64,000 nucleotides of DNA from Lingula anatina (taxonomy: Eukaryota > Animalia > Brachiopoda), in contig CM120641.1 in assembly GCA_051362555.1 (NCBI GenBank), forward strand, positions 7,750,001 to 7,814,000, read 5' to 3'. A model generated the notes under the pieces. It had not been told where the DNA came from. It saw nothing but the letters and a program-made list of their open reading frames with translations, and searched no databases. This document shows, one piece after another, positions 28,324 through 56,346 of this stretch; positions within the stretch are counted from its first letter, which is position 1, and every line of letters starts with the position of its first letter. A program made the translations under genes and the position numbers.

Positions 28324-31300
28324 TCAGTTCCGGCATCTTCCTTTACGTTCATATCGCTGGAATTTTCGTAGTCTTCTCTGCCATTCATCTTTCCATGGTA
28401 TCACTATACTCCTCCTGTCTAAGACTAATCCATCCATGTTTGTGTTTTGGTGATCATGTCCCAAAAGCAGGTAGCGCCTGCCGACTTTTAAACGAGGGCA
28501 TTTGCAACGAACATCGCTGAGCTGTATCCAAACCTGCTCTTCACCACGGCGTAGTTTTGAGGAACTGCTTCTCTTGAACATGCTGAGGATGTTTACTGTG
28601 AATTTCACCCATTCACCAATGTTTTCTCTGGTGATCACTTGGACATTTACAGCTAAAATGGACAAAAATATGTTGCTGAAATGCATTTTTAGAGGCAACT
28701 TATGCTATTTGAGAATTTCTGATGATATTAGCAAAGGGATGGAAATTTGTTACAAAAACTTTTAATGCTGCAATTCTTTTTTCACTGGCAACCTGTGCTC
28801 TAAGTTTCAGGATTTATCAATGGTTTAACCACATAGTAAAGGGTTCAATTGTTTTCTTATAACCTCTGTAGCACTGATCCCTGAAACTACATGTGACAGT
28901 GTCTTGTTAGAACTATTTGTGCAACTTTTCAAAAAGCACTAAAGTTTAATGTAGCAGACAAGGACAAGTTATTTGGCTGCCAAAGCCACCTTCCCAGCAA
29001 TTATGAACAATTAGAGTGTGTCTGAAAAATTGGTCATTCTTATTGTTTCTTCCTAACAAGGTGAAACGACTTTCTGCTATCAATTTTTTTCTTGAATAAC
29101 CTCAGGAAAAATCTGGTGGTTTGGAGAAAAAAGGTGATTGTCAATTTGAGTTGAAAGTTAAAAAATGTCTTAGTTCTTGAGTGCAAAAGGAACTCACCAA
29201 AGTTGTACTTGCAGAACTTCTTCTTGCTGATGCGTTTAGAAGCAGCTTTGCATTTGTCTCTGTCACATGAAACAGGTTCTGCTAAAAGAAATTGAACATA
29301 AAAAAAATTAAATACTAGTTTAAACATGTTAACACATAACAGATTCACTTAGGAGACCATATTCTATAACATTTATAAAATCTGTTGTTTTAATGTGCAT
29401 GCATCTTTCAATGGACACTGAACAGAAATGGAAAGGCATTAGGTACTTACTTGGTTTTGGACTTGTTACTTTAGGCTGGTGAGTTTCTAAAAAGTAAAAA
29501 ATTCAGACATAAGAGGTGTTATAATTGAAGAAAATGCTTTCTTCAGACACTGAACTTACGGAGTTGACAATTTTTTAAAGTTGTATTATATCAGACATTT
29601 GGTTGACTATAATAACCATAGATCCCTGTTTTCATTTTACATGCATGCTATTGAGGGAAAATCCTTTAGCATCACCATACGTTAATGATTAACATGTCAA
29701 AATGTATTTGTATGCAATGTTTAGACAGTAAAGTGTGTATCTAGTTGCCCTTTCTATATCCTGTTGTCTCTGTTAATTCTTATTTGTCAGGAAATCAAGG
29801 TGAAATGTTACATGTAAACATGTTGCAACTGGCTCTAGCTGAGCTGTCAGCTGAATCTCTCTCTCTTTGTGTGTGTGTGTGTGCGTTGATTTACTTAATT
29901 ATTTTATATTTCCTAATACCTTTGTCTAAGAGAGTCATTAGTATTTCTTCAATCATATTTTATTTTAGCAGATGTCACTGTGCCATGGCTGATGGCAAAG
30001 ACAGAACCTTGTTTTTTTCCCTTTCTTTCAAGCTGTGGCCAGTAATTACTATGATCATGGAATGGCTTACAGATACACTTTGAACATTATAGTTCCACCC
30101 ATTTGTCTTGATACCTTTTGGCATTTTTGGATGTTTTTATTCATACTGGAATCAATATCTCTGTTTTCACAAAAGAGGACGGTCAGTTTGATATCAATAT
30201 CAGAATAAAATGTGCTCTAGAAATAACCACCACCAGGTGAATTGAAGAAATGAAACCTAATAAAGAGTCATGACAATGAATAGGGAGACCTGGTATTTAA
30301 TCTGCATGCTTAGACAAAAATAGAACTAACTTGTTGTTAATGATGAATCTGCAGATGAGTTACTTGCCTCTGGAAGAAAATGAAAGAGTTATGAAAGTTA
30401 ATAAGAAACACCTGAAACCTTTGAGTTAAGACACCCGGAAACACAGAGTCAAAGTAATTACTGTCAATCACAATTCATTGATATTTCCTGGTATGACTGT
30501 TAATCACTTTTGGATATTTGCCTGGTACAGAAAATGGGCACAGATTGTTTCTGACATTATCTGGACACGTAAAAATTAAAATTACATTTGTTTTTATTTC
30601 TTCGCCAAAAAAGTGATCACTTAAAAAGAAGTGGTGCAAAGTATATTTCATGCTGGTTGATCTTCACCAAACAATTTTACTAGATTATTTTGCCATTGAT
30701 ATCTTCTTTTTTTACAAAAAAAAAAAAAAAAAACAAAACAAAACAAAAACAAAAACCAAGTGATTGACAGTATTTCTGAAAATATTCATGAAACTGAGCT
30801 GTCAGTAGTAACAACAAAACTTGGACTTTAAAATGCTTTTTCTTCAATTGAATTCAAAATTATTCAATGGTTTTGACTGTAAAAATGAAAAGAAAAGTTT
30901 ATGAAGCAAAAAGCAGAAGGGTTCCAAGAAATATGATAGAGGAAGAGCTAGGCTTTGAAACATGGCCACAAAATGACATTTTCATCAAAAGACCGTAAGT
31001 ATTTTTTATCCTACTGTGTGTCCTCACAATTTGTGGTATAATATTTATATGACAAATAACTCAAGCATGGATGGAGTTCTAATCAAGCAAAACATGCAAA
31101 GGAATGTATCTACAGTTTAGCATTCATGCTTTTTCTCTATTAAAAGGGGCATTGCCACTACCTAGTCATTATTTTTCTATATTGATTAAGTCAAATACTT
31201 TTCAAGATGATTTTTACTTTGATTCTCTAAAACCAGCATGCAGAAAGTCTCTGTTAACTGGAATAGCATGGGCAACCACTATTTGCAAAACTGAAGCGGC

Positions 31301-34300
31301 CTATAAGCACAAATTACACATCAAATGCAGAAAAAAGAGGGAAGCATGCTTCATTGAAAGAACAAGTAACTTTGGCAGTTGTCTCAGTACTTCGTGATTT
31401 TCTTCGCACTTTTTTTACTTGTTGTAGATGTTATCCAGTAATGTTAAACAAGATTATTAATGAACCTTACCAAATAAGGTATTTCGTGCACTTCACAGGA
31501 AGTTCACCACCATGCCTCTTTGTATCAAACTGTGCAAGAGCGCCCATTCAAAATATTTCTTCCTTACCCCAGCTAACAGTTTTGATACCATGTGGCCACT
31601 GAAAATATTTCTTTTTTACTTGGGCTAGACTGACTCTAAATACAATGTCATAAGATATCAAGTAGCTGCTGATAATTTTGATCAATTTCCTTTTTAATCC
31701 CAAGGTGAATTTGTGATAGGAATCATCACAGTTCTGAAATTGGGGTCTACTTGATGTAATTTTCAGCAATTATATTATGGGGAGAAGAAATGAAAATTCC
31801 TCCCAGTAGACTTTTGTTTAAAGGCCAAATGTTCTCAAAGCTTCTCAGATGACGACTTCATGACACATAAAAATTATTATGGTACAGATTTGGGACATAA
31901 TATTTTTAAATTTGGGAACAAATAAGAGAAGAGGAAGTATAGTAATAATTACCAGCTCTGAATTATGTGTGGCAAATTAAATTAAAAACTGTCGATGGAT
32001 GAAAATTGAATGTTCCCCTTGTCATATTTGTTATACTTAAAATGCTTTTTTTCAATAATAAAAAAGCTCCATTCTTCCTAACATATAAATACAAATATAT
32101 TGTTAAAAATTGAATCTGGAGTAAGACAACTTGGCTGTTATGATAAAATCATTCAGATTAATTCTGCACTTGAATACACAATTTCATCTAGGTGGTCTGT
32201 TTTTGGCAGAATATAGTGCAAAGGTGGTCCTGGTGGCCCACCCAGGATACATTACACAGTAGTAACTGCAACATCATTAAATCACCATGCCACAATAGAA
32301 TTATCTGTTCAGAGGGATCTCTCAGAGTGAATGTAGCTACATAACTAGAATCATACCTCAGTTTCTCATATTGGCCTTGGCAGCCTATCATCCTGCCAAG
32401 CCCTTGAAGCTGTATGACAGTGATGAGTAAGTCGGATAGGAATCTGTATTTGTATCAAAATACCCACCTGCCCATCCCTTTAATAAAGTTCTATACAAAT
32501 TGTCTTATGAAGTGTGGAGTTAATCCCCCAGAAAATGGGTCCACTTTGCTTTGAAAGGGGATCATGGGGAGGATTGGATACCCACCACATACAAATTGGA
32601 AAATTAGTTTTTCCCAGGTCTACGGCTGGGATTGATTTGTAGTAAAATTAGAAAGAAAAGAAACTTGGGCTAGAATTCCCGCTCATGTAATGCCAAGGTT
32701 ACACACTTGGTCATGAGAACAGGAATTTATCCTACTACTATAAAGAGCAGACTTACTAATTTCATCTTTATACAGAGTTACATGGATTTATTCAAAAATT
32801 CTATTTGTGTGTTTTATTCACTTTGTTTCCTTCATATCCTGGGAACTGAAACTGCTTATTTATTTGATATTATATCAAAATCAAAAGATAAATTTACCCT
32901 CCAAACTTTCTTCATATTCTCACACATCATTATAAAATGGATTTTTTTTTTAAATCTTGCCTTTAAACTGCCAATTTAGCTATAAACTAGCTAAATATCC
33001 CAATAACAAAGCACACCCGCAGGGATGCACAAAGGATCTAGCATTTACGGGAACTACTCCCTAACTGAATTGGGGCAAAATCACACCATGTTGTTCCCTT
33101 CAACATGGGTTTCATTACAAACTGCTATTTCTGTATGATATATACTGACAGAAACTGCTATTTGTCTTTTTTTATGGAAGTAGTGGGTGGTTTTTACGCA
33201 TATTGCTTTGTGTACAAACAGTTCCTGACTTAGTCTAGAAATCTATGTTACTTCACATTTTGCTCCAAAAAATTAGGTCATTTAAATTAACATTTCTCTT
33301 TTATGAAATTCAGGAACCATATAACACTAAAAGGCTGTTAATTTTCAATAAGCCTTAATTTTTTAAAGCATCTTGTCTTAACAACTAGAGCAGCTTTACA
33401 AGCTTCTCACTTTCTTGTATACAACCCCAGTTTAGTTTGTATTTAATGTCCTGCTAAGTTAAAAAAGACAATTATCCAATTTTTCAAATAACTGTAGGCT
33501 CTACTCATTCTTGCTGTGTTGGTAAGTGTGAATGCAGGCTACAATTTGCTACCAAAAGTTTTAAGTCAATATTCATAACTACTATGAGATGCAGGGAGCT
33601 ATATTGTGTAATATTACAATGCACATGCATGTCTTGGCATGGAGAAGAACATAATCTGGGATGCAAAATAAGTTGAAAATGAATGCACTTACTGACGCAG
33701 GGCTGAATTGGAGAGTTGCTCTGTGTGTACCCTGTGGCACAACGATTACAAGTGATACCAGTCACTCCGTCTTTGCATGGACACTGGCCATTGGTCTGGT
33801 TGCATGTTTTACCCAAAGATCCAATAGGATGGCAGTCACATGCTGAAAAGAAAAAAAAAAGAGAATAATGTAAATAATATTTGGTAGAAAATATGATAAT
33901 AGTAGAGCACATGTGTGTGTTAGACATTTGGATGTATTAGAGTTTACTTATATGTGTTAAATATTTGTACATTCTATCCTTTGTCTATGTTTGAATTTAA
34001 ATATGGGGTAATTTTTTCTTCACAAGGGTGGAAGTTTTCCCACATTCTTGCATGAGTAACACAGCTTGTAAAGAAAATCTTTTCAGTGGGAAGTTAAATA
34101 CTATAATCCCCGCTTTGTGTGCTATAGACACAGCCATGAGGATTTTTGACTAAGTTTTTTATCCCAACACATGCTGCTCCTGCACGCAAGGTGAAAAGTC
34201 ATTATCTCCCAACATTTACCCAAGGCATGTATGGGCCAAAATCTGTCTAATAAACAAATTAAACGTGCAGTTAACAATCATGGAGTGAAAAGATTTAATT

Positions 34301-36298
34301 TGGGAATGGCCACCGCTGTTTTGCAGTTTTGGGCTCTACCTCCCACAGGGAGATGTCCTCTAAAAACTAAAAAAATATTTTTTGAAGATTCCTTTATCCA
34401 AATTATTTCTTAAAGCCCAATGCTGGTCTTTCTTTTTTTGACAGGCATCATCTTGATGGTGAAAAATGAGGAAACATTAGAATGAGGGTGTTGGTGCTTT
34501 TTTTTTCTCACATCTTAAATTTTTCTTTGATCATATAGAGCCATAATGAGCTATGGAAAAGTTTAGGCCGACTCATTTTCAAAAGTCACCACATTTTAAG
34601 TATAAAATGTTGTTAACAATGTTGAATGGTTCTGAAAACTGCTGAAATGAGTCTGTTGGGAATCCCGGAAGGTCAAATAAACTTTCCATTAAAAACCTTT
34701 GCTTGGCAGGGTTTTTGAACTTAAGTTCTGGTCGATGAAACTCAGGAATTAATACTGTACCACAGGTATTTGCATTTCACCAAGTTTCAGTAATACGTTC
34801 AAAAGTAAGAAAATGATATATCATCCTCTACCAACTGTGCACAGGTTTTATTTGACCTTTAGGGTGACAAGGAATTTAGTGGAAACTTTAATTTACCTTA
34901 ATGGAGAAGTAATCAGCATAAGAATCCAGACACTGAAAATAATGCTGCTAAAAACAGTTAATTTGAAAGATGTGTTCTACTCGGTGAAGGACTAAAATGT
35001 CCATAAATTTTGAGTATTGCGGATCCACAACTTGAACATATGTCAGGACAGATGTGTGAATTCAAACTGTGGATAAACACAGAGATAACAGAGATAACTT
35101 TAAATGGTCACAATCATTGGTATGAAAAGATACATTGTGGTCACATACAAAAAGATACATAATGGTTTCACACACATTTAATTAAGTTGGGACAGATTCT
35201 TATAAGGTTGATAATTTTCTTGCATCATTAGACCATCATTAAGTTTGCTTTTACATAACAAATATCTTGGTCCTGTAATTCACTAAAATATCCCCTGGGG
35301 AAGGGTCTTGTAAGAAGACACTAGAGTAGCAATGTTCAAAGGGGATTCATTACCCTCTCTCAAGGTGACACTCATTCCAGCATCTCACCTGTGAAGACCC
35401 ATGTTATATGATAATGCTGCAGTAATTTTCTAAGCACACCACACCATAAATTGGTCATGTTTTAGCACCGTTTTCTTATCCTCGGGCTATAAGGGTATGA
35501 TACCATGGATTGGAGCATATTGATTCTTTCACATTTAAAGTTTGCATTTGTCAGGTTTATTGAGATGCATTTTCATTTTCAAACTGTCTGGCTGTTTCAG
35601 ATTCATACTCAAAAACTTCTTCCAATTTTAGAATATTTTGATAAAGTACTAAAACAGCTACTATTTATATGTATTTGTCAGGTGGAATCTTAATAAAATA
35701 AATATCAATAACCATGTGTGTGTGCTCCTTCCAAGACTTACCATAACTTTGTACATGCCATTATTTGCAATACCTTATTATACAACCTGTACACCATGAA
35801 AGATTTCTTAACCATTAAAAACCCACCCACCTTTTAAGTACTGCAGATGTTAACACTTGAAAGTTAGTTATAATATCTGTTTGAAAAGTAATTGCAAATT
35901 AGACATAAGGGATGGGAGATTAACGTCATCTTCAAGAATGACAATATCTTGGCAAGTTTTGGAGTGCTTGCACCTGCAGTTTTGAGTGGCTCATCACTAG
36001 TGAAATTAGTGATCAGCTTGCTGTGGTTTTTTGGCAAGGTGCACAGTAAATTTGACTCATGTTTTTTTCACATTCTAGCCCAAATTAATTTGCCAAATTA
36101 ACAAAAGACGCCCTGTTTTATTTAAACCTGTAGAGTTATTGTTATGCATTATTCATCTAGCCACAATATTCACAAAATTACATGTAAAAGGTAAATTTTT
36201 CAGTACTAAATTAAGTATAATTTGGAAGGCTAATGGTTGTTTTTATATTAATACCAAAACTGTTTAGGAGTCAAATCATTGTCTTTTAATTGAATTTT

Positions 36299-36353
<55 letters not shown>

Positions 36354-39300
36354 ATAAACAGTGGTAATATTCTGAGAATGTCCACAGGATTTTTAATCAT
36401 ATTCTAATAAGATATGTTTTAATATATATTCGTCATTGAGAAAATTTTTCATGGAGTAAAAATAATATTCACTCCCCCAGCTGTTCAGTGTTTCAGGCTA
36501 AATACTCTTTCCAACAGGAAAAAGGTTGATTGAAAATGTTTCTCTGAGAAACGTGAGCTCTTCATCAACTCTCTGGGTCCTATTTTGCCATCTGTTGAAC
36601 AAATAAACTCCCCTGTACATGGAATACCAGTACAAATTACATGTTAAACATGTGTTAATTACAAAGTTATCAGGGGGAGCCCATAATTGCTTTAGCAAAG
36701 AAACCACTAAAACCACTTTTATCTCTCAAAATTGCTGTATCTTTTTAAGGAAAATGTACTTTAAGGTCAGATTTTATTAGATATAGGGTAGAACCACTGC
36801 TGAAATGTATCCTGTCCCCAGACAGACTTGAGAACAGACTCAGGTTGTGTACAACAGAGAATTTTGTCTTGTGATTAAAAAAATAAACAATTATTTTGTT
36901 ACTTATTTAAAGAAATGTACTTTAGGGTCAAGGTGACAAAAATGTTCAAACCTTGCTGAGACACAGCATTTCCTGTTCAAAACTATAATTGGTTTGAAAG
37001 CTCAATGACAACACCACTCTTGCGAGTTCAAGGTTTTTTTTAATCCTTAACATTTTTAAAGAGTGCTGCTTCGTGGGTTATACAACTTTTTCAGCTAAAC
37101 AGCAAATACTGACTAAAATTCATAAAGATAAACAAGAACTAAAATACAGTATTAATTCACAACATACAGTGCAAAGGACTTTATTTTTTGATAATACAGA
37201 TTCAGAATATGTGGGAAAGTTTTTTTTTCTAAATGTAATACAGAGGTGAAAGCTCTGCCCAGTGCTAGATAGATAGATAACCTTTAAAAACTGGTGTACA
37301 GAAATCCTGAGTTGCAGCTTTCTGGACAAGTTGATTTATCACATTTTCAGCAGCTAGATAAATATATACATTTGCAAACATTATTTACCATGTATTTTCA
37401 AAATACAAGCAAGAAAGACTTTTTTACCTTAAAGGTGTTGGGTTTGTTGCTATAATTTTTTCTTTTGCTTAAAATGAAAGGGTTTTAGTATTTCTTAAAA
37501 TTTGTTTCATTCCCTAGGTTCAAAATAAGATTGGGGCATTGTAAATTATGTTTTTTTAGATTTAATTTAGCCACCTGCTTTAACATAAAATATCAATTTC
37601 TCTTAAATCATTTTAGTATAATTTTTCCTGCCTAAAATAATAAAAGTATTTAATTTTTTGAAATGCAAATGCTGTATTAAAAATGCTGCAGCAAAACAAC
37701 CTGTCCCATAAAATGAATGGATATTTTTTTAATATGTAAAAAAAATCATTTAGTAGCATTAACCATGGAATAAAAAACCATATGGGCCCTAATTTGCTGG
37801 CTCAACATGTGAAATTAATAAACATCAGAGGGTGGATAAAACTTCCACACATCCCACCTGATAAAATTTAAGTATAAAGTTAGCTTAATGTCAAGACCAG
37901 TGTTTCACCTGCCACCATGATAAGTTACCCTGCTGCCCATTAAATAAAATCCCCCCAAAAAATATTATTTTATTGCTGAATAGACAGAAGCATTGAAACC
38001 TTCTAGAAGGAAGCAGTAGCAGTACTATTTGTATGTAGATATATATATGTGACAATATATTTCCCACACTTTTGGAATTCATTTGCCAGTGAATTTTCTA
38101 CCACGTGGAAAACAAGCAACACACGGCAGTGTTTTCGGAATGGGTGCATTCAGTGAAAGACACACTTCAGTTTACCTTTACAAACTCTCCGATGTGTCAG
38201 AGGTTTGGTAGGGTCACGGTAATATCCCTCTACACAATAGTGGCAATGCCGTCCTTTAGTATTGTGTCTGCATTTGATGCAGACGCCACCACTGCGCCTC
38301 CCAGACAGCAGGTACAATTCCTTGTTGAAACGACACATACGAGCATGTAGGTTGCAATTGCAGGCTGCAAGAAAAGAAGGAGTAGAAAGTGGTAAGAAAA
38401 CATACTATACCTTTGCAAGCCCTACGGTGGGTCATGGGTTTTGTGGGGTCACGATAATACCCTTCTTTGCAATAGTGGCAATTGCGTCCTGCCGTGTTAT
38501 GTCTACAGTTTAGGCAGACACCACCACTCTTGCGCCCAGATAAATTGTATAACTCCTTATTGAAGCGACATTGCCGGGCATGGAGGTTACAGTTACAGGC
38601 TGAAAGTAGATGGAAGGTAGAAACACACTTAACAAACAAATTAGGTGCAGTTAGTTTGTGGAAAAAGCACATTATTATTTTGTCAAACAAATTAGTAATG
38701 CGGCACACTTTTTACTGAGGGTAATCATTTCACACAAAAAGTGCACAACAAAATAAATAAATAAAGTACTAATGGCAGATCCATTCAATTTTAGAAGTAA
38801 ATGTTATAATTGAGAAAAAAGGATGAAGTCATAGCAAACTAGCACTAAACTATGCAACTGGCTGTCACTAGATTCCATATTAAAAATGTGTAAGTAAATG
38901 ATGAACATATTGCATGTGATGATAAATTTGCGTCACAGTATTTTTCAAAAGATGTGTGGAAACCGTGTGTATTATGATATGGGACCCTCTGCAGTTGTAT
39001 TTAATATTTTGTTAAGAAAGATGTTTATTTCAGCAATTTGATAGTTTCAGGAGTGCTGTTATTCTACGTTGATTTTGGAGACTAGATATAAAATAACAAT
39101 GAAAATGTGTGTTACATTAAAAAAGGTGAAAGATATGAGGTTCTTTTTCAAGATCTAAATTGAAAAACAAAATTCGATATGCTGTCATAAAGAGAAAGAG
39201 AATTAAACAAAATAGGTACAAACCATTACCAAGTGATCATTTTATCAAATTTTAGTCACAGTGCAAGTGCGAGTTAGCAGAGATTAGTTTTGTTTTTAAA

Positions 39301-42300
39301 CTTGTCCTAGGATAGAGACTATTTTGCTTCTTTATTCCATCAGAAATCAGGTCAGCCAATGTCACCCAGCCAAATAAGGAAACCGTGTCTGATAACTGTA
39401 CCAGTTGACATAGATACTAGAAATCGATTTATTATATCCACATCAATGCATGGAATTTTGCTTCTATTTTCATAAGAGATAGAATGGCATATTTGATAAT
39501 GACAGCTGTCCTGAACAAGGGAGTGAATTTTGGCAAAAAAAAGAATCCAACGCAATTTGTGGTATCTGACTACCTTTTCCGTGACATTAAAGTTGATCAT
39601 GGTGTTGATTTACAATTGATCCGAAAATCGCATGATGTTTTTTTTTTCTTTTTAAGAAATATGAGGGTTCTGAATTAGATTTCGACACAAAGATATAAAA
39701 TAATCAACTAAGATTTCCATAATAAAATAAATGAAAAGGTGTCAATTTGGAAAAAATAAATTAGTAAAGAAACTACTTTCACAGATTTTGATAATCACGA
39801 AAATAAAGCAAATCAATGCATAACTTCAAACTGTCTGATAATGAATCAAAACAGACAATTGGAAAAACAAATTTATAATTATTAATTTTTTATCATTAGC
39901 GACAGCTTCGTTTCGGGTATCGGTCGTAAGTAGCAAAATCGACACCCTTGCATTAATTTACATTTACGAAAGTTTCCTGAATTCATTAAAGTCAATTTTA
40001 AAATTTAGCCACGAAATTCGGTACAAAAACTAGAATTTGTAAGCAAATGCATGACCAAACTGTTTCATTCTTGGTTTAGAAATAGGAAGGGCGCAGTAAA
40101 TTTGTCCTTTTTGGCATTGAGGAGCAGCTAGTCTGAATACAGCAAAACTATCACCTGGCTCGCGCTAAAAAGACATGCCTAGAATCTAGACTATAAGCAA
40201 CTGAAATTAGACTTGTCAGGCGGGGCAAAGGAGCAGACGATCAGAGCATGTTTTTTGGGTGAAACGGATGGCAGCTTTAGTTATGTTATTCGTAGGTCTA
40301 GAAAGAAAAGTTATGGAGTGAAAGCTGCGCAGCACATGGTGCATATTAAAAATAACAAAATTAGTAAAAGAGGTTGTTATTGGTTTTTTAAGAATTCTGG
40401 TTAAAGAAATAAAGAATCCCGGTTCCAATAAGCAGTAAAACTCAATAAAGGTGTGTTTGGATTTCTCCTTTTTTATCCAGCCAGTTGGTCGTAACTTTGG
40501 CGATTTTTAAAAAGATATTTAAACGCACACAATTGCACAAGACATAATATATATGAGTTTATAGATATTTTAAACATCAGACAACAAATGTCAACATGTT
40601 CACATTTCAATATTGGAACATATTGCACATATTGACATATGTAAAACACACATACACTCATGGCAATAAATATCTATATTAAAAAAAACTAGAATATCGC
40701 ATTGATAAATAAAGAAAACATCATTTATCAAAAGCTATGAATTCAAAAAAAAGTACATGATTTAAAAGTCGTTGTCAACAGAAACGAGTATTATTATATT
40801 CGTATTAATCAAATACCCTTTTGCTTGGGCGCTGGAAGGCATGGTTGCTTCCCCATGAAAACATTTCAAATGAGTAGATCAAAGTAGCATTGAAAACTGG
40901 GATAATTTGCAGGTGTGTAAACTCCATTGTGAAACCGGTATACGTGATTTTACCTTGCTCACCATCAGCAGCGCTAGGGGTGTTTTTATCGGAGTTAACT
41001 GACTGTAAGACTGACGAACTAATTATTATATAGATTTGTTTTGCCGTCCCAGTTGAAATATGCAAAAAGTTGAAACGATATTGTTGTAAGGCCATTATCA
41101 CAGGAAGGGCGCGTCGGGGGCAAGTTTCTCACAATAAATACAGTTACATTCTTTAAATTTGGATTTATTTACAGTCGGGGATTAACAGTCCAGTAGCAAT
41201 ATTTGCACTTTGGATTTTGGGTTATTTCCCTTCTCTCAATTGCTGAATAAATAGAGAGATGTTGAAAAAGGTAACCTCAAATTTCCCATGGCAATATATA
41301 CTTGCCGACTATCTACCCGCTTGACACCACACCACGACGTATGGCCATTGTTAAATTGTTACAAAGATTTCTTGTGTACATTTCAACTGGGGGTGGAGGG
41401 TTAAGTATGAAAGCGGTATTGTAGATGTATTGAATATAGCCACGTTTGAGAGCTCACTATTACAATCTTCAAGTCTTCGTAAGTGCGAAAGATGATGGCC
41501 AAATTCCTTGTTATGTGCTCAAATTTCCGCCCTGTATAAAATCATTATGTTTGCTGTAAAGGATCGGACAGAAGTTGAATCAATCAATCACTCCTCACAT
41601 AGTATTACCACTGTCACTGGACTTACGTTCAAGAATACTAACTTCAAATACTAAATATATTGGAGTTTTGGCATAGAGCACGGAGCATATTTTTTGTGTG
41701 GAACTTTAATTACTAGATGCTTTGAAGTTAATGTATAAAAATCTTTGGAAGATATTATGAAGCAAGCAAATTTATGGACATACGTTGTTATACTGTGTGG
41801 CCTTGTAATTATTTTATGCCACGGAAATATGCAAAGGGCATCTTTGCATTCGTTTGAGAGAGAGAAAGAGAGAGAGAGAGTGCCATCTCTCACGACCTAA
41901 CCGTGAGCTAAGACGGGCATTGGTAGGTCCTAGCCGTGAGCGAGAATGTGATGAACAACAGAACGCATTTTATGTCACAGGAGTAATAAATTATACGAAG
42001 GTCGTTAATTTCCTACAAGCCGTGGTAACAGTTTAATATGGGATAAATATCGCAACATCTAGCTATTTATATTTCGAATCATTTTAAAAAAGGAAAGTCT
42101 TAAGTGAAATATTTTAATAATTTGTTAGTGCCTCAGAAAGGTCTATTAGTTAATATGTAACAGATGTCTCAAACGTTTAGACCTGGATTTACTGATAAAA
42201 AGGGTATGGGTTATTAGTGCTACAATAACGCTGACAATCAGAACACTTCGTCCACACAATATAGCAACACCGAATTGACACTTCGATGTTAGCGAGTAAG

Positions 42301-45300
42301 TCTTATGGGCTTTATAATTATATACCAGCGCATACCTTAACTGGGTAATTGTAAATACCTATCATTGGCAAACTGTATCAACACTTAGGATCTGACCAAC
42401 GCCACGTAACACCTTAACAATCGTTTGATCTTTATCGCACCAAGCTCCCAGCTTGACCGGGGGTGAAGGGAGACACCCGTCCATATATAGAAAAACAGTT
42501 TATTGCTTTCGTGCAACGTTTTTAAGAATGTCTTTCCTTTGAGAGAGTACAGTAAGCCTTAAGTTCTAAGTTTGCCGCGGTGTTTGATTGTAAATTTACT
42601 CTTTTGTATCTTCACAGTTTGGTGTGAGAAACGGTGGCCCGAGTTCTTTGTTAATTGAGGTTATCGCATATTTTTTTTCATCAAGACGCAACAATTGCTA
42701 AGAAGCTAATAGGATATCACCGAACGCACGGGAGAAAATTACTTGCGATAGAAAAACTGAAAGTCGAGCGTGAGTCTACGGGTGCGATAACAGAAAGAAA
42801 ACAAGAGTCAGGTTGCTATGAAAACCACCTTCTCTGTATCCCTCTAAAGAACGCACCGTACACCTTTTCGGTACCTTCTTATTTGTGAAATAAACATAGA
42901 GGCGAGGTCGTGAGATATAATAGACTGACACATTTCAGAGTTCAATTTGCAGGAAATTGGTATGGTCGGAGAAAAATATATTCATGGGTGTTTTTTCTTT
43001 ACTTTGCTGTTCCGAAGCTTTCGTGTATTCAAAGTTGTAATTAACTCTGGTTTTCGAAAAATACTTCCACGTGATGGTTTCAATGGTGTTGATGAAGAAA
43101 TAAAAGATTGATCATGTTATCGATGAAAGTACGTTTGTTCCCGTTACACAAGACCCGCGGGTCGTGCACCGAACACGACACCCAGATTGGATGCAAATGG
43201 TGATGACATGAGCTCTTGCTTACATTAACCGATAATGGTATCAATCGCTACTTCATTATAACGTATAATTTTCATAAACATTGCAAAAATGCCTGTCTTT
43301 GAGCTCAAGACAAATATTTCTGCAATACGATGCCTGCATCTCTACTTCTTTGCACGTCGAACATTTAGTATGACCAACGTTATGCAATGTGTAATTTGAA
43401 TCTGGAAAAGGATTCTGTCATCAAACGTTTGTTCTGAGCGTCGACGTGCGAAAGGAATAAATATCCACCATCACCCCTTGAAAAGACACAAGAGAGCACA
43501 CCGCCACTTAAAAACAGTACAAGTCTGGTGCTTGAACCATGGCAGAAAGTTTTACGACAAAGATCTCTCCTATATCACCGTTAATCTAGACGGAGGTGAT
43601 TTATTCCAATGTCTGCTGCTCGTAAAAATACGACATACCTCTGGATCAGTTCGCATTTTGTCAAGCTCCACATTTCACGAGCGACCACGGCGTGGGTCTT
43701 ATGCGATGTACCTATTATAACAATTTAGATTGACAGATTTACAGCTATTTACAAAATATGTATTAAATGTTTATACATGAATTATGAGTATTTATCAATT
43801 TGTACGCGAGTAAATTGCCGGAAAACGCTATGTTATGTGTCCATTATACCGGACACAAAACCAACTATTTAAATCAGAAAGAAAAGCAAATGTCTGTCAA
43901 ATTAGATATTTACTTCTTACTTTAATGGGTACCGGCGATCACCTTCCACTGACACCTGTATAAATGATCAGAACAATAGACTGGAATTTACGAAAAATTA
44001 GATCTCTTCTCGTCATAACAAAAGGCCACCGCAATCGCGCTGCCAGCTGGGGGGAGAACGACACAGATGGCCGGAAGTGAAGCGAAGTTTAAATGCTTGA
44101 TATCATGTAATCGAAATACTAACTTTTGTCACCCTATTGTTTTCCAGCAGGGCAGATCCGCATAGAACATGTTGATACAAGCCGCAAGATTGGTCGGTAT
44201 TCATATATTGATTCAGCAATTAATTTTCACTTTACAGGCTTTGTAAGTAATATATTTATCTTTATGCTGAAGTGAAATGAAGATTACTGCAGGTTGTTTT
44301 CACTAGTATTGAGAGATGTTTTTTCAAGGCGCGTCATTTTGAATCACCATGTGAGTTCCTTCCTGCTCTTAAACGACTATTCTTTTGCGTAGAATGATCT
44401 GATCCCCTGTAAGAATATCTCCTCTTCCCATTAAAGTGAACGAAGTGAATCATTCAACTTCTTGGCCTTGGGCGATCATAGGGGGCAAGATACGTTAAAG
44501 GTGTCGAACAATAAAGAATTTAATGGCACTCTCTAATTGACTCTTTTTACCGAGTGACACTGAGGGCACAAAAGTTCTGTCGGCAAAAACACACAGGAGA
44601 ATTTTTCACAAAGTCACTGCTTTGACAGTGTAAATTTGCACTCGATCGTTTTGGCAAATACAACATACAATGATACTACAATCTGCCCTACAAAAGAAGA
44701 GAGGGGAATAGTGCGTGCCGCTGTTATTTTTATTTCTCCCGATTATTTATTTTCCAATGCTCTCTAGACTAAAATTTAACACGGGATGTGTAGTCACGAA
44801 TCCATCTTTATTGTAAGACGGGAGAAAGTACACAGCAAGTAATTATCGTCGTCTCTCATTTGCCTTTTTATACCTTTATAAACCGCGAGGGCAAATTTTA
44901 CTATCCTTGTATGAGCCAAATTGGCCGAATTCCATGAACCGAGACACAGGTGCACCGTCTTTTTTTGTCAAGTGACAGGTAAAAAGGAAGAAATCAGTAA
45001 AGTAAAGGGGAGACAATAGAGATAATGTGAAAAAATTACGCATGTGTTACTGGCTCTATCTTAACAAGCTGGCTGATAATGTTAACAGTCGACTAGGTGT
45101 GAACCAGAAAGATAGACAGAGATACTGAGGGGGTTGTCAAGCGGAACGTTCAGGGGTTTGTAGTTCATCTGTGCACCTGTGACCCGTGAAAATCACTGCG
45201 GGATCCGAGAAGAAAAGAGGGCTTTGTCGTACAATTGATGTCAAATCAAGACGCCCGTGATTACAAAACTTCTTGAAAGTTTAAAATACAGAGGCGACAC

Positions 45301-48300
45301 AAGTCGCATTTCATCACATTTTTGCCCCACCACTAACTTTTTACCGCAGACAGATTTCTTTGTTATCGTCTCTATGATTTTGATTGTGCCACCTTTCTCA
45401 GTGATTTCTGTCTCTCGGCGAGTGGTCATTTCCCTCGTGTGTTAAGTGTGTCAATCACCGCCTGTTAAGGAATTCTTTTCAATTAATGACTTCACAATCG
45501 ACTGCCCATCGCTGCTGTTTACCGATTCAATGATTAGCCACTTAGAGTAGGTGTGAAACGCTGTCACTGTCAATTAAGCTCGATGCTAATTGGACGATAA
45601 AAATGATATGTCGTAGTGCAGCTATATTCTTGCCTGGGGTAACAACTAGGATTTGGTAGGAGGAGATGTGATTCTTTTGATGTATTTCTCATATGCTTTG
45701 GGCATATTCAACATATAATCCTGCAAATATCATCCACATATGCTACAGGTAATTTGAGCCGTCTGAAGTTGGGGTGATCACGATGGCATAGCTCGTTTTT
45801 ATATAAAAAAGAATAAAAAACAGTGTTCTTTTTTGCTTTAAGCCGGGAAAAAGGTAAAGGCCCAAGTCTCATTGTAACAACAACGAAGCCGCCCCTTCCA
45901 GGTCATGAATGATTAAAAGACAAACAGACAAACACATTAGAACCCTTAAGCTACCAAAAGTGCAGGTTCCGCTTTTTAAGTCACGGTAATTGTCCCACCC
46001 TTAGTGAAGAAGTGTTAACCGCCTGTGGCGGACCCATGAGTAAGAGGAAAAGGAGTTGAATTGAGCTATACATTTTGAATTGAACCAAAACGTTTGTATG
46101 CTATACCATTACCCTGTGTTACTCGATAGTCCAAATAAATACCAGCGTAAAAGCTTAAAGTTTAGGTAAGCGCCAAGCTTCCAGTTGCAAGTATCCCTCT
46201 TTAACTTGATGAAGTAGCGGTAGTTTCCCGTAAAGATTTACGAGTGAAGAACGATATCTGTGCTTGTGGTGTGTTGATGTGCATAACATATAAATATTGA
46301 AGGGTATTAACTCTCTGTTGAAAGTTCAGGAGTAAATATGCAGAGGGAGGGAAAAGTATCCGCAATTGTGGGGATTAATTGGGTGCCTGATCGCTTACCA
46401 CTAGCAGCCAGCCCATCAAAGGTTTTAACACGTCAGGAAACACGTGAAGCGTTAACACACGAAACATTCGTGCTTGGTCCGGAGGCAAATAACGAGCTAC
46501 TACTAACAAGATGGTCGGGGATAAACCAGTTATACGGATTAAGGGTCAGAGTATGTGTGAAAAAAGAGACAATATTTGCGAGCTTAATTAAATTTCGAGA
46601 TCGCGTTCACTCCCTTTCTATCATCTCATCTCCTGCTTTCGAGTGCGCTCTGAGAGCAGTGACATAATGTTATCAATGATAAAGCCAAATTTTCCCTTTT
46701 TTCATTCAAAAATGTTCACCCCACTGCTAAAACGCATTTATGCTATCAGAATGAGCTTAACGACTGCATGTGTGCTCTAATTACACCTTTCCCAAAAATA
46801 TAGATGTTGAGACTCCATAGCACTCTGGTATTCATCCTTACAAACCACTTCATATTTGTCAAGATCTTATTTCATCACTTCTGTAGTTCAACTCAGCGAC
46901 GCACGCTTAGGATTTCAGAGATTGACAATTCGTCCGCAAAAATTTTTTTTTTCAGTCATCAAGGTCTGCGTAGTTCTTTTACACGTAGATGGTAGATGCC
47001 TATACCAAACCCGATTTTAAGAAAACAAACAACTATCGCTGGTGCAATCACGATTAGGGACATTAGAGTATATATGACAAGGCGTATCGTATTTCATCAA
47101 GTTTTTACTGAAAACATTCGGATATTATTAAGAGCACATTCCCGCCGGCCAAAGAGCTAGGGGTTGGAAAAAAACTTTTCATTCATACATTAGTATTTGC
47201 TCCATAAAATAGACATTTTAACGCCCTGCTCTTGTTAGTGACATACGCCTGAGATGTGAAAAGGTCGTTTAGAAAGAACCACAAACAAAACATCACATTC
47301 GTCTTGTTAGGAAAAGGGGTTGGTGTTTTGACAATCGGGCGATGTACGAGTTGGCGGGGACATACATCGATGAGTTGACTGAAAGCTGCGACGAGCTGTG
47401 GGGATTAAGCCATGTGGGAAAACACTTGGGGATTATACAGACAAACCCAACAAGCAATTATACAAAAAAGACAGAGAGAAAAACGATGTGTGGAAAAGCT
47501 TCACATTTCTACACAGCGTTTTAATCAATGAGAGATGTTCTCGGAAGGAGGAAAAAATCGAAGTAAATGAAAAAGGTCTCTGTATTAATTCGCACTTTGC
47601 TGAATGCTTTAATTTACATTCCGAAAAGTAATAGCACTTCCTGTGATTGACAGGCCCTTGATAACAATCTATCTTCAATCTTAACAAGCTGAAACCGATT
47701 TCAGGGAGGAAACAAGAAGTTGAATGAATGAATCTCTGCCGTAGATAGAGAGATAATAAGAACCATCTCCCTGGCTTCTTTTAGCTCTGGTAGGTCGTAA
47801 GAGACAAAGGTACATACAGTAATTGAAAGCAACGGATAGTATATCCACAATAAATAAATTTTATGAAGAACAGAACTCGGTAATAAATAAGACTGAACTG
47901 ACATGTGCAAGGGGTGTTTGGGGGCTTTGATGTTTGTGGTTGTTGAAAGGTACGACTCGGCCACATGAGCTGAGAGCGGTATGTTTCTTTAGTCCTAGAC
48001 ACGCGTTTCAGAGCGAACTGGTGTAATTATGAGAGGAATTCGGGGATTTTTCTCGCACTGTTTCATCCTGTCCACAGTTAGCAGGTTTATGTCGTCTCGC
48101 AATACACTCCATGCTTTATGGGAGGTCAAGTTATTATAACGTGAATGAGTGAGGAGGCCGCGAACGATAGGTGATACTTAAATTATGAAAAATTACCCGT
48201 TTCTCTGACAGCTTCTTATCTTTTCCATCTACACCTACTGATGAGTTAAATGAAGCCCTTACCTAGGTAAAGGATAAGATCTACTGACAATTCGGAATAT

Positions 48301-49405
48301 TTACTAACATTCTTTTCATGGAATTGTTGGTTTACAGAGAAAGTGAGAACTTACCGACACACTCGTTGGCTTTCTGATCAGTAGCCCGCGCCCAGGGTCG
48401 GTCGAAGTGGAAAGGCTTGCACCGCTCACAGTCTGTCCCTGCGGTGTTATGTTTACACTCGCAGGCAAGGGTACCGTCTCGGTTGATATTACATTTCGAA
48501 GCGTGGCCATTACATTTGCATCGTCCTCCCACCGCAAAATCAGCCAAAGAGTAGTAGAAATTATCCTTTGCCTTGTCGACATTTTCATCGATGGTTCGAA
48601 GGCGGTTGAAAACCACGCGGATGTCTGTCGCTGTAACCCAGTCTTGAAGCACGGGACTGTTCATAAAATCATAAGCCGAGGGTCGCCCTTCCAGGGTGCT
48701 AAACGCCACTCTCCCCCCACTGATGGGTTCGGGGGAATTACTGTTAATATCAGTACACAGTGCCTCCTGCTCGTTGGCCTTAGTTATCATCCCCCTGGGG
48801 GGCTTGCCGTACATTTCTTTGCACTGACTTGAGTAATACTGGAAAGGTACCCAACTTCTGCCGTGGTCCACACTTTTGTATAAAGCCATGGATTCAGGTC
48901 TCGGCGAACAAAATTGTAGGCTGATGTAAGTGAGTTCAAACTTCTTCGCCAGACTCAGGGTGAGGGTGACGTTATTTGGGTATTGGACGAACGGCTCGGA
49001 CATCCAACACGTTAAGTTATTGGGGTTGTTTAAGTCGGTAAGATAGCTCGGAGGATGCATCCTTTTAGGGTGTTTAGCATCACAAATATCACAATGCATA
49101 GCCTTGAATTTATCGACACTGGGCGAAACTTGGCAAAAGCGATTTGGAGGAGAGCCGCACGTGCTGGACGCTGTGATTTCTTTACCGAAAGCCGCATTGA
49201 CAAAGTCTGGAATGCATCTCTTCGGATTTCCCATTTCGTCGTAACAAGGATCGGGTGGATTTTGCTGGGCAGCAAACATAGTTAGAAAAGAGCTTGACGC
49301 TAAAGCTCCCTTGCTGAACAAAGTTAATAACAGGAATACGCCGAGTAGGGCCTGTGTATGAAAATCCCTTGATAAAGTCCAGGTTTTTATTCCTCGCGTG
49401 TTCAT
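28324..49405 (-). CDS. NTN1: Netrin (netrin-1/UNC-6 family), ~612 aa with one LE2 exon (~675 aa if both)
   Basis: Exons (-): 48355-49405 (signal peptide, laminin VI domain, LE1; [36 protein letters not shown]), LE2a 38411-38599, LE2b 38176-38364, LE3 33693-33842 (ACDCHPIG...[17 protein letters not shown]), 36-bp linker 29451-29486, 29198-29281, and NTR/C345C 28324-28652 ([29 protein letters not shown]). All junctions are phase 1. Confidence 0.95.
36304..36350. repeat. (TA)n microsatellite
   Basis: About 23 tandem TA units. Confidence 0.95.
38176..38364 (-). CDS. Netrin LE2/V-2 exon, copy b
   Basis: ttgcag|CC TGC AAT...AAA G|gtaaac; 189 bp; [63 protein letters not shown]. Confidence 0.9.
38411..38599 (-). 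CDS. Netrin LE2/V-2 exon, copy a
   Basis: tttcag|CC TGT AAC...AAA G|gtatag; 189 bp; [63 protein letters not shown]. Confidence 0.92.
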
Positions 49406-49859
49406 CGTGAAATGATATTGCGTATTTATGTCTGGTTCAATTATCTTAGACTATTAAAGAGCACTGACTTACCACTGCAGCTGCAAACTTATCTTTCACT
49501 AATCTCCAATATCTCCAAAGTTCCTTTGGCTCTGTTTATGTTTTATGCATTGGTTCACGGGTGTAGACGCATCCAATAAAAATGCGCTAATTGACGTTAC
49601 TTACTTTCAGACAAACGTGCATTGCAATGTTACTTCCACATCCTATATCGGTTTCACTATGAAATCAGCAGAAATCGGTAGCACTCACAAATCTTTTTGT
49701 GCCAGTAAAACAGAGAGCTCCTTGGTTAAGAGATGGTGTTCTCTGGGAAGACTGCAGTGATTTGAATCTTGTCACAGCTTGTCTAGGTTCACGTGGATGA
49801 CCAACTGAATGAGCTGCCTGCGGCTACCTTCGCCTGCTTTCCACGACCACTCCGAGTGT

Positions 49860-52796: not shown

Positions 52797-54916
52797 ACAA
52801 AATCAACAAATCAACAAGAGGGACGCTCCCTTCAGATCCACAAGAATAAACCAAGCTGAATTCTGCCATAAACTCACGTCTGCCATGAAAATCATAAATA
52901 CAACGACCCAGACAAATGTATTTTTCTTTTTACTGTTTTTTATATACCTTTTGTTGAGTTATCACAAATTACAATAACGCACTGGACCTACTGTTTATTA
53001 GCCTACACCAAAAGATAAAATGATGTACTAAAATGTGTTGTTCTATTTGTAAACGAAACAGCCATTACCATTATGACCACCCGTCGGTTTGTACTTACAC
53101 ATTGCCTATCGTTTTGGCAGTGTTCGGCAACTTGTTCTTAGTTCTCGGGGTTCTTTAAGATCCCTAGGCCTACATGTATCAAATGCTTGGAAAAATTAAC
53201 TGAGGAGTATTGCTAATGCTTCCTCATGTTTGACATCTGCTTTAATGGCTTTAATGTTATGCATGTTGTCACTATTATTCCCCTCGTAAGTGGTCTACTC
53301 AGAAAAAAAATTAAACAAACAAACAAACAAAAAAATTTTTTACTGTTACGACTGCGAATGCGGCGCGTATTGATTTCACCCCCATCTATAGCACTTTAGT
53401 TGTCATCTGTCTACACGTGCACTCAAGCACAGTAGCAGACTAGATTTAATTCAAAATTCCGTATTCTGATAACCGCTGAAAACACCCTACTTAGCAAATC
53501 AAGGTAAAACAAATCACCTTTTTATTGGCGTTAGTTCAAATGGGATTAGTTTAAAGTAAGAGCTTTTACTCCCGCAAACGTATACAACCAGTGGATAACA
53601 GATAAGGTTTTGAAAATTTAGAAACAGCACTACATGATCTGATCTAATCATTTTAAAAGACATAAAATGAATTACCCTAGAGATTAGTCGATTTTTTGGT
53701 ACTCTTTTACAAAAAGAATACTTTATTAGTATTTTTAAAGTTTTTGTGTGTGTGAACAGTATTAGTACGTAGTAGTAAGTCACGTACCTGTAGCACGAAA
53801 ATCTACATTGTGTACTAGTACGTTGGCACAGCTGTTCATAGGGTCTGATTGTGATATGTACTATAGGACTAAGGTGTTAACGTATGAAATGTATAGATAC
53901 GCATATCTGTAATTGTAAAATGACAGCCAGCTATTGCGTCAACTGTGCTGCACGGCCTCTCATTAAAACCTTTAACTTACCCGTCTCCTCCCCCAGTTGT
54001 ACACTACTGTAAAGCCAACCAGTTTTCCTATTGACAAAGCTGTGATTAAAGTAAAATTAATCTGCTTATCTGGCAGTTGTGCTGCTGTAAAATTACACAT
54101 TAAAAGTAAAAATGCAGGTCTAATAGCCACTGTGAACTGAGTTCTGAATGTGCAAGTTAGATCAAATAATGACTCAAACTTTTTACCTACGATGTACACT
54201 ACATGTACCTACTCCAGCACCAGTACACTTGAAGTTGCTCGTCCAGTGTGATTGCTTGAGAGTTTGTTTCCAGGTGGGAAATAATCCCCAACATACTATC
54301 ACTTTCAGATGTCTGTTTATGCAGGAATTTTTTTCTATCGTTAATTATCTCATAGTACTTGTCAACTTCGTATTGTTCAATATCTTGATCCTGAATCATG
54401 CCCCTACTTGCCTTTCTATAATGCATTAAGAGCAGATTTAGTTCTTTGAGTCTTTTTCTGTGTGGGTGGCTGTTTATTTCTGTACACAGTTTTGTTGCTT
54501 TCTTTTAAATTTTTATTTACATGTATCTTATTTACATGTGTTTGTCACCTAAAAATTGTGTCAGTCATGGCATTTCCATATTCTAACGCAGTGTACCTTG
54601 AGTATGTTCCAGCATACAATTGTTCTATTTATTACCTCCAAAATTGAATTAGTCTCCTTCACTGTCTGTGTGCGGGTGGAAACTTAGCCTATCGTTGTAG
54701 GTAACAAATTAACCTGTACCTGTGAACCAGTGGCTCTTTGTTTTAATCCCTGATCCATTATCATCTGGATTAATTCCCTTTTGAACACCAGCCTTAAATG
54801 ATTAGCCCCTACTGTAGCTACCTATAATGTCTTATATTTGTGCCATCGAGTCTGTCTTAATAAAATGCATCTTGTGATATGTTATCATAATATTTTTTAC
54901 TTTGCAGTGTGAATCC

Positions 54917-56346
54917 ATGGGAAAGGAAAAGAAAAGGAAAATGGATGATTCATCAAATCAAAATGTTGAAAGTAAAAAATCAAAAAAAGAAAAGAAAGAA
55001 AAGATTCCCAAATCAGGAGATGCCAAGAAAAAGAATGAAAAAATTAACAACTTGGTTAATAATGACAAATATTTATCAGATGAAGTAACAATTAGAAAGA
55101 GACACAAAGATGAGCGAAAACAAGTGGAAGCTGATGATAACTCAAATGATGAAGCTTCAGCTAAGAATAAAATCAGTGAAGAGAACAATGAAAATTTGAA
55201 CATGACCAAAAAAAGGACGGCAAATGAATCACAACAATTATGTACAGAAACAATAACAGAAAAAAAGAAGAAAAAGAAAGAAAAGAAGAAGGTTTCTTCT
55301 GAGACAGACAAGGTTGTAGGAGACAGTGAAAAGACAAGTGCTAGGGACTTAGCTTTGGAATATCTGAAAAAGTGGCATGAAAATAGAAAACAGTGGAGTT
55401 TTCAGAAAGTGCGTCAGGTGTGGATTCTGCAACACATGTATGATACACAGAAGGTACTTTAAATGTATATTACATTTGTTTTTTTAGTAACTACTAATTA
55501 CTGTAATTATTTTGATTATTATATAAAATGAACAAATGTTCTTTCACTTCTAAGGGTTTTCACCATGTATGCCACCTAACTTATCCTTGCTTTAAAAAGT
55601 ACATACAAAATAGGCCAAGTTCTGTGATCATGTGGCAAGAATCCCATGAGTGAAAGTTTTCAGGATTAGACCTGGTTTTTCGGTCTTCATTTTGATCATT
55701 TTTTCATATGGTCGAAATGCATTTGAGAAACTGCAAGCTACTGATGTGTTTTCAAGATTTTCAGTTTTTACAACCCAACCCATGACTTCCATTATGTAGG
55801 TTTACATTTTTAAACCTCTTTCATGTTCATTTTTAGGTACCAGATGAGGAGTTTAAAATACTTTTGGAATACATGGAGAATTCTAAGGGGAAGGCAAGGG
55901 AGAATACAATAAAACAAGCAGAAGTAGTGATTGAGAAATTTGAAGAAACAGATAATGACACAGGTATAGTTTGAAATCTTTTTAGATTGTATAATTATAT
56001 AAGGACTACCAATAGTGTTATTCTCAAACTATATTGGTTTACTGTACAATAAAAACAGAATAATACTGAAAAACAAATGAAACATTGTCATTAAATATGT
56101 GGAACATGAGAAATGTGCTGAGTATGCTAATACCTTTCTCATTACTTAAATTATGTTGTTGTTTTTTTTTTTTTGTTTTTTTTTCATTATAAATATTTTT
56201 AAAGTGTTAATTCTAATACAGTTGTTGTTCAAGTATTACTTTTGAAATGCAGTACTATACTTTAATTAAATATATTTCCACTTTGTTTTACAGCAGCTAA
56301 AGAGGGCTATATGCGAGCAAGACAAGTCCTGCAGATGCTAAGCTGA
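54917..56346 (+). CDS. C7orf50: C7orf50-like WKF-domain protein with Lys/Glu-rich N-terminus, ~238 aa
   Basis: Exons 54917-55453, 55837-55963, 56294-56346 (NAGNAG acceptor). ALEYLKKW...WSFQKVRQVWILQHMYD...VPDEEFKILLEYM...RARQVLQMLS* matches the WKF domain. An acceptor at 54907 implies an upstream non-coding exon. Confidence 0.85.

Follow-up and report, generated by a model that had tools for sequence, protein, structure and literature searches.

Whether a netrin attracts or repels is usually ascribed to the receptors on the responding cell. In other systems a binding or selectivity part is itself swapped by duplicated exons, as in the FGFR IIIb/IIIc and Dscam Ig exon clusters, and in netrin-G isoforms splicing alters the LE stalk by deleting domains. 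Duplicated exons also exchange the selectivity part of NALCN, giving alternative selectivity filters (PMC3557258). Fifty-seven human exon clusters with a donor-to-branch distance below 50 nt have been reported, netrin not being among them in the survey's main text, and a steric threshold of about 50 nt between donor and branch point is given for vertebrates (PMC5740500, PMC7969005). Within netrin, LE2 is described as the main heparan-binding site (PMC9984387); it also contains DCC site 2 and is required for the functions of UNC-5 in the worm (PMC10871540). The accessible text of a review of netrin structure and evolution does not mention an LE2 exon pair (PMC10084454). The window analysed here, a stretch of 64,000 nt from the brachiopod Lingula anatina, contains such a pair, which we call exons A and B.

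The netrin locus and its two LE2 exons

The gene in question is the Lingula anatina netrin-1 locus (Table 1): the LE2 encoded by exon A is 100% identical to that of RefSeq netrin-1 isoform X1 in a protein search, and isoforms X1 and X2 map onto the window by tblastn at 99% in the large exons. RefSeq holds five Lingula netrin isoforms, of which X1, X3, X4 and X5 contain A, X2 contains B and none contains both; in Pfam, X1 and X2 each consist of Laminin_N, three laminin-EGF stretches and NTR.

The window sequence bears out the original prediction of two 189-nt, phase 1-1 LE2 exons, each with AG/GT ends, eight cysteines and no stop, and the ten residue differences that it listed (A/B: Q/M, N/L, K/R, L/I, N/K, A/K, N/H, K/V, M/L, A/V) are exactly those found. 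It had also set the 46-nt spacer against introns of at least 158 nt elsewhere, and the shortest other intron, counting those of netrin only, is about 170 nt long. Both exons pass the Pfam laminin-EGF cut-offs, and LE2 of the solved netrin-1 and UNC-6 structures is matched by exon A along its full 62 residues, in netrin-1 at E 3e-36 (residues 341-402 of the 604-residue chain). Between A and B, 51 of 189 nucleotides differ, with a synonymous change in 30 of 62 codons; synonymous sites are saturated (pS 0.77; dN 0.13), which puts dS beyond correction and leaves dN/dS without value. The proposal of an old duplication with both copies kept agrees with this saturation, with the intact frames and with the occurrence of the pair in other spiralians (see below). 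The pair is the sole long direct repeat within 33000-49500, and it is not an assembly duplication because reads cover both copies and the spacer. Both exon lengths are divisible by three, so that a frame shift arises only from the retained spacer; A and B thus do not belong to the type of exclusion that works through frameshift and nonsense-mediated decay, for which exon length is not a multiple of three.

Table 1. Features of the Lingula anatina netrin gene, in window positions
Feature	Position	Strand	Evidence
Netrin coding exon 1 (signal peptide, LN domain, LE1)	48355..49405	-	tblastn with RefSeq X1/X2, 99.4%, 351 aa; RNA joints from 48355; donor GTAAGT
LE2 exon A, upstream, major form	38411..38599	-	Reads joining exon 1 to A and A to LE3; RefSeq X1, X3, X4, X5
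A-B spacer, 46 nt	38365..38410	-	Retained in part of the transcripts; no splicing across the spacer listed
LE2 exon B, downstream, minor form	38176..38364	-	Loose ends from exon 1 to B, reads joining B to LE3; RefSeq X2
Premature stop when A reads via the retained spacer into B out of frame	38256..38258	-	Translation of contiguous window sequence
LE3 exon, common acceptor of A and B	33693..33842	-	Joints 33842-38411 and 33842-38176
39-nt cassette exon, LE3-NTR linker	30331..30369	-	Present in RefSeq X1-X3, absent from X4-X5; mixed loose ends at 33693
36-nt linker exon	29451..29486	-	Loose ends at 33693
First NTR-domain exon, tandem TAGCAG acceptor (29281 or 29278)	29198..29281	-	RefSeq X1 and X3 one residue apart here
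Last coding exon, NTR/C345C domain with stop	28324..28652	-	tblastn 99%, 110 aa; Pfam NTR

At a synonymous third position of a cysteine codon in exon A (38478), the window has G and all covering reads have A in 7 of 7 runs, reflecting either a private allele or an assembly error. The acceptor of A ends in TCAG in Lingula, as it usually does in relatives, and that of B lies at a spacer end whose translation is often F-C-L-A-A and whose nucleotides end in GCAG, similar across distant species. The LE3-NTR linker is varied by the 39-nt cassette and by the tandem acceptor, and linker variants of equal size also appear in the isoform lengths of Lineus, Mytilus, Haliotis and scallop. Elsewhere in the window, on the plus strand, lie exons (10797-13224) for a WD40 protein with a long tail of low complexity, presumably similar to denticleless/CDT2, a lysine-rich ORF (54878-55459) ending in a WKF-like motif that we take to be typical of C7orf50-type proteins, and two ORFs (62799-63925) that we assume to encode a serine/threonine dehydratase or serine racemase-type enzyme.

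Expression of A and B and the intron between them

Reads came from 7 of 10 listed Lingula anatina RNA-seq runs, from 3 studies (runs X2, X3, X4, X5, X8, X9 and X10, with run X8 used twice; runs X1, X6 and X7 were left out), 6-30% of each run being read; in the fine-scale mapping, a junction was listed from 3 reads per run upwards. Broad mapping over 33500-48700 in runs X2, X3, X5 and X8 gave 13, 1, 0 and 12 reads, respectively, from exon 1 to A, 18, 8, 2 and 8 from A to LE3, and 1, 0, 0 and 3 from B to LE3, with exon 1 to B and A to B both absent from the listed joints. Fine mapping over 38105-38704 in runs X4, X8, X9 and X10 gave 3, 10, 11 and 5 loose ends from exon 1 to A, and fewer than 3, then 4, 3 and 6 from exon 1 to B, whose consensus is the end of exon 1 (agreement 1.0). 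In the same four runs, A was joined to LE3 by fewer than 3, then 8, 6 and 7 reads, and B to LE3 by 3 reads each in X8 and X10 and by fewer than 3 in X4 and X9.

All four junctions are present in the reads, in line with the expectation that both copies would be transcribed as alternatives. Those foreseen for isoform a (48355 to 38599 with 38411 to 33842) were both seen; those foreseen for isoform b (48355 to 38364 with 38176 to 33842) were both seen as separate junctions, since 150-nt reads are too short for exon 1, B and LE3 together, and B-to-LE3 reads could stem from a spacer-retained form. The junction from A to B (38411 to 38364), expected to be missing, is listed in none of the 7 Lingula runs, a statement to which the threshold applies in that up to 2 reads per run would escape listing, and no joint or deletion across the 46-nt spacer is listed in the 4 finely mapped runs. 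We are highly confident that A and B are used in Lingula as alternatives, one at a time.

In study P4, exon B accounted for 13 of the 39 acceptor reads (95% interval 19-50%), and in study P2 for 1 of the 27 donor junction reads; the difference in donor use between P2 (1/27) and P4 (6/27) is not significant (Fisher p 0.10). A minor form with a single donor read in P2 is what might be expected if B were decaying, spliced as noise or an artefact of assembly. This would be a most surprising outcome, given that the frame of B is intact at saturated synonymous sites, that B makes up a third of the acceptor reads in P4, that it is intact in relatives of several phyla and that both copies and the spacer have matching reads.

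In runs X9 and X10, read depth over exon B falls from 9-14 near the acceptor to about 2-4 at the donor, the next intron is without reads and the exon B reads are biased to one mate direction; the stop of the retained frame shares nucleotides with a variant poly(A) hexamer at 38260-38255. The drop in depth could be due to polyadenylation within the exon, to decay of the retained form or to small-number noise.

The spacer itself was covered to a depth of 0, 2, 2 and 8 in runs X4, X8, X9 and X10, compared with 0 in all eight flanking intron bins in all four runs. It is thus retained in 3 of the 4 finely mapped runs, in perhaps only about 6 fragments since mates may overlap. When A, spacer and B are read through, the frame shifts and translation meets the stop given in Table 1, so that spacer-retained transcripts are a third, frame-shifted netrin form besides A and B. 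The only match to the branch-point consensus yUnAy in the spacer is at nt 18 (38393), a predicted site, and with an intron of 46 nt in its entirety the distance from donor to branch point necessarily lies under the vertebrate threshold of about 50 nt. Retention of the spacer fits an intron that cannot be removed, because this only match lies far below about 50 nt. A branch point 17 nt from the donor of A would block the joint assembly of U1 and U2, and each transcript would then take A, or take B, or treat A, spacer and B as a single exon, the last form probably being lost by nonsense-mediated decay. It is likely, then, that A and B are kept apart by a spacer too short for splicing; the spacers of 99-129 nt in relatives count against a steric block in that they require a distant branch point. 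As to exclusion of the docker/selector type, in which RNA stems at the exons compete, the local RNA fold of 38340-38440 is no better than shuffles (z -0.5, short-range structure only), and none of the 25 longest of 141 inverted repeats touches the pair.

Distribution and origin of the pair in Spiralia

Protein searches and cluster look-ups gathered 452 proteins, in a survey that by name left out cephalopods, leeches, planarians, bryozoans, chaetognaths and priapulids. The conserved pair anticipated in relatives was found by the protein searches across Spiralia, with A-B spacers of 45-129 nt in 15 read-through ORFs (this method detects in-frame spacers only). At least 20 of the 36 named spiralian species tabulated have two LE2 types, and 16 have one type among the matches listed. 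A and B occur in separate single-LE2 models in 16 RefSeq species (brachiopod, two nemerteans, bivalves and gastropods) and in the annelid Owenia, and a matching pair is found in molluscs, annelids, ribbon worms, rotifers and a tapeworm. No protein with two whole LE2 motifs was present among the named deuterostome, arthropod or Xenoturbella proteins retrieved, and the isoform sets of amphioxus, horseshoe crabs, shrimp, ticks and echinoderms contain one LE2 type per species. A near-identical tandem LE2 in the tick Hyalomma (P0016) has its second copy out of frame, and no more than one LE2 is present in any of 14 other tick models; it is likely an assembly or annotation artefact and was excluded from the trees.

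Two whole LE2 motifs were found in 30 proteins, namely 12 genomic read-through ORFs, 14 bdelloid rotifer proteins, 2 of Echinococcus, and those of Plakobranchus and Tegillarca. A and B, 189 nt each, are in frame with one another, 18 named GenBank-type gene models join them (14 rotifer, 2 tapeworm, 2 mollusc), and for Rotaria socialis there are models with A alone, with B alone and with both. From this one might conclude that A and B are spliced together into a four-LE netrin, rarely in Lingula and regularly in some lineages such as bdelloid rotifers and tapeworms. We give this reading very little credence: gene finders join adjoining in-frame exons by default, 0 of the 17 joined models with listed accessions are RefSeq models, and the joint from A to B was listed in 0 of 7 Lingula runs. 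Database models of a 'four-LE' netrin probably result from mis-joining, and mutually exclusive use of A and B is the reading that we retain.

For the origin of the pair, we built LE2 trees from 62 alignment columns, the second of them with 45 rows (18 pairs and 9 single-copy outgroups); the order of the copies is known for 8 pairs, and the other 10 of the 18 were labelled A and B by resemblance. Sixteen of the 18 B copies group together in both the first 45-row tree (support 98/93) and the second (93/92), and in the second tree 17 of the 18 A copies group at 80/89, together with two long-branch B copies (Echinococcus and P0011). The copies mostly sort by A/B position rather than by species, which points to one old duplication. 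Among seven AU tests (uncorrected), clades of all B (0.28), all A (0.19) and all spiralian copies (0.32) were not rejected, and duplications confined to molluscs (p 0.016) or to Lineus (p 0.035) were rejected. A single ancient duplication in an early spiralian is the simplest reading of these alignments and, we believe, a distinctly probable one, and it would place the one origin of the pair before rotifers split from lophotrochozoans.

If instead the pair had arisen several times, or gene conversion had homogenised the copies, the residues that they share would be convergent. The AU tests do leave clades of Lingula A+B (p 0.15) and Adineta A+B (p 0.16) unrejected with 62 columns, the B group does not take in the B copies of Echinococcus and P0011, and mean LE2 identities are nearly equal, at 0.72 for A-B within species and 0.72 (A-A), 0.71 (B-B) and 0.69 (A-B) across species. 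Repeated origin nevertheless seems to us quite unlikely, considering that order, phase and short spacer are alike in all order-known pairs, that leave-one-out tests scored the first copy as the more A-like of the two in 10 of 10 cases (both signs being right in 8), that no pair was seen outside Spiralia among the proteins retrieved, and that the mollusc-only and Lineus-only duplications are rejected.

Residue differences in LE2 and relation to known systems

Three LE2 positions carry residues typical of A or B. Across the 18 pairs, position 14 (mouse M354) is M, I or L in 14 A copies and K or R in 13 B copies, position 18 (mouse K358) is L, I or M in 14 of 18 B copies and K or R in 0 B and 6 A copies, and position 39 (mouse H379) is N in 15 A copies and H, F or Y in 16 B copies; in the single-copy outgroups, position 18 is K in 8 of 9. 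Among the 8 order-known pairs, position 18 is L, I or M in 7 B copies and in no A copy, and position 39 is N in 7 A copies and 1 B copy. In Lingula, position 18 is L in exon B (codon 38311-38309) and N in exon A (codon 38546-38544), where it makes an N-L-S sequon that B lacks and that is also found in Novocrania and two hemichordates. Both Lingula copies have K at position 14, so that A carries the B-type residue there, and the canonical K18 and R9 are missing from both.

Of the three regions that contact UNC5B in a structure at 5.3 A (PMC13759497), one is the loop-b helix of LE2; that paper places chicken K360 (mouse K358) in interface region 3 and reports that a four-residue mutant including K360 weakens UNC5B binding from 113 to 535 nM. 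Mouse K358L lowers the binding of the UNC5-blocking antibody NP137 (Grandin 2016, as cited in PMC13759497). A loop-b helix of the B type, basic at 14 and hydrophobic at 18, the reverse of the ancestral M/K, would be expected to change UNC5 affinity, and position 18 of Lingula A may carry an N-glycan that B would lack. Whether the difference between A and B really affects UNC5 or heparan binding is, on this comparison of residues, an evenly balanced question, and the switch of guidance-cue specificity put forward in the original prediction is here a hypothesis. Tuning is likelier than an on/off switch because the core residues are common to both copies and the canonical K18 and R9 are in neither; a true switch between attraction and repulsion seems rather improbable. 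Equally doubtful is the fullest form of the idea, by which the pair would have been a spliceable switch on the ligand side since before the rotifer-lophotrochozoan split, B being a natural K358L-type variant, with UNC5 repulsion turned up or down, DCC/Frazzled signalling kept and a glycan added in Lingula A. The AlphaFold2 model of the B isoform (35-row alignment) had a mean pLDDT of 50.8, with the LE region below 50, and was left unused.

The pair could also be exclusive and old with the two domains alike toward receptors, B being kept, for instance, for dimer or filament assembly, for retention in the matrix or, through the retained form, for setting netrin dose. The core heparan and DCC-site-2 residues (positions 8, 11, 32-33, 53 and 57-58) are identical in Lingula A and B, as is position 13, and this set, which takes in part of the UNC5 patch, is mostly the same across the 18 pairs; the net charge of LE2 is +10 in A and +11 in B, LE2 also forms the netrin dimer interface, and the spacer-retained form is common in study P4. 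Receptor equivalence would not, however, predict that the residues telling A from B at positions 14, 18 and 39 have been kept through five or six phyla; two of these positions sit in the loop-b helix that contacts UNC5B, and we hold equivalence to be unlikely. Taken as a whole, alternative LE2 exons separated by a steric spacer, derived from a single early spiralian duplication and predicted to tune UNC5 and heparan binding, are probably the best explanation of the locus.

If the LE2 swap alters UNC5 or heparan binding, part of the choice between attraction and repulsion would move to the sending cell, in many animal phyla. A and B offer two natural, long-selected LE2 variants for comparison against UNC5, DCC and heparin, and the pair is a possible shared character of Spiralia. 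A netrin probe or knockdown used in molluscs, annelids, brachiopods or flatworms could be targeting just one isoform.

The original prediction knew of no description of such a pair in netrin-1-type genes, and we found none in the accessible text of the literature searched, including PMC3319590, PMC12084653, PMC13121700, PMC3912159 and PMC10084454; most subscription journals (for example, older reports of leech, snail and planarian netrin cloning) and bioRxiv supplements lie outside that scope. Both Lingula isoforms are already in RefSeq, as unlabelled models. Exclusive exons that arise by tandem duplication are known; a pair that sits in netrin's receptor-binding domain and is kept across Spiralia appears to be a new case of them.

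Models of netrin-1 that lack LE3 resemble the Lingula isoforms in that splicing alters the LE stalk; they differ in that a domain is deleted, whereas Lingula swaps an LE2 of equal length. Such LE3-lacking models are met repeatedly, in fish, amphibians, horseshoe crab, amphioxus and Daphnia (of 87 flagged by a loose pattern, 7 were inspected), and deletion of LE3 is reported to turn netrin monomeric (PMC13759497). The Lingula isoforms share LN, three LE and NTR with the netrin-1/UNC-6 family, but their LE2 is encoded twice and splicing picks one. Like the steric exclusive pairs, such as OGDH exons 4a/4b and the human clusters, A and B are tandem homologous exons with a short intron and a predicted branch point near the upstream donor; the netrin intron differs in being 46 nt in all, with its branch point predicted, and the pair is apparently conserved across phyla. 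Finally, the switches in FGFR, Dscam and NALCN sit in receptors or channels, whereas the netrin pair, with its putative effect on binding, sits in a secreted ligand.
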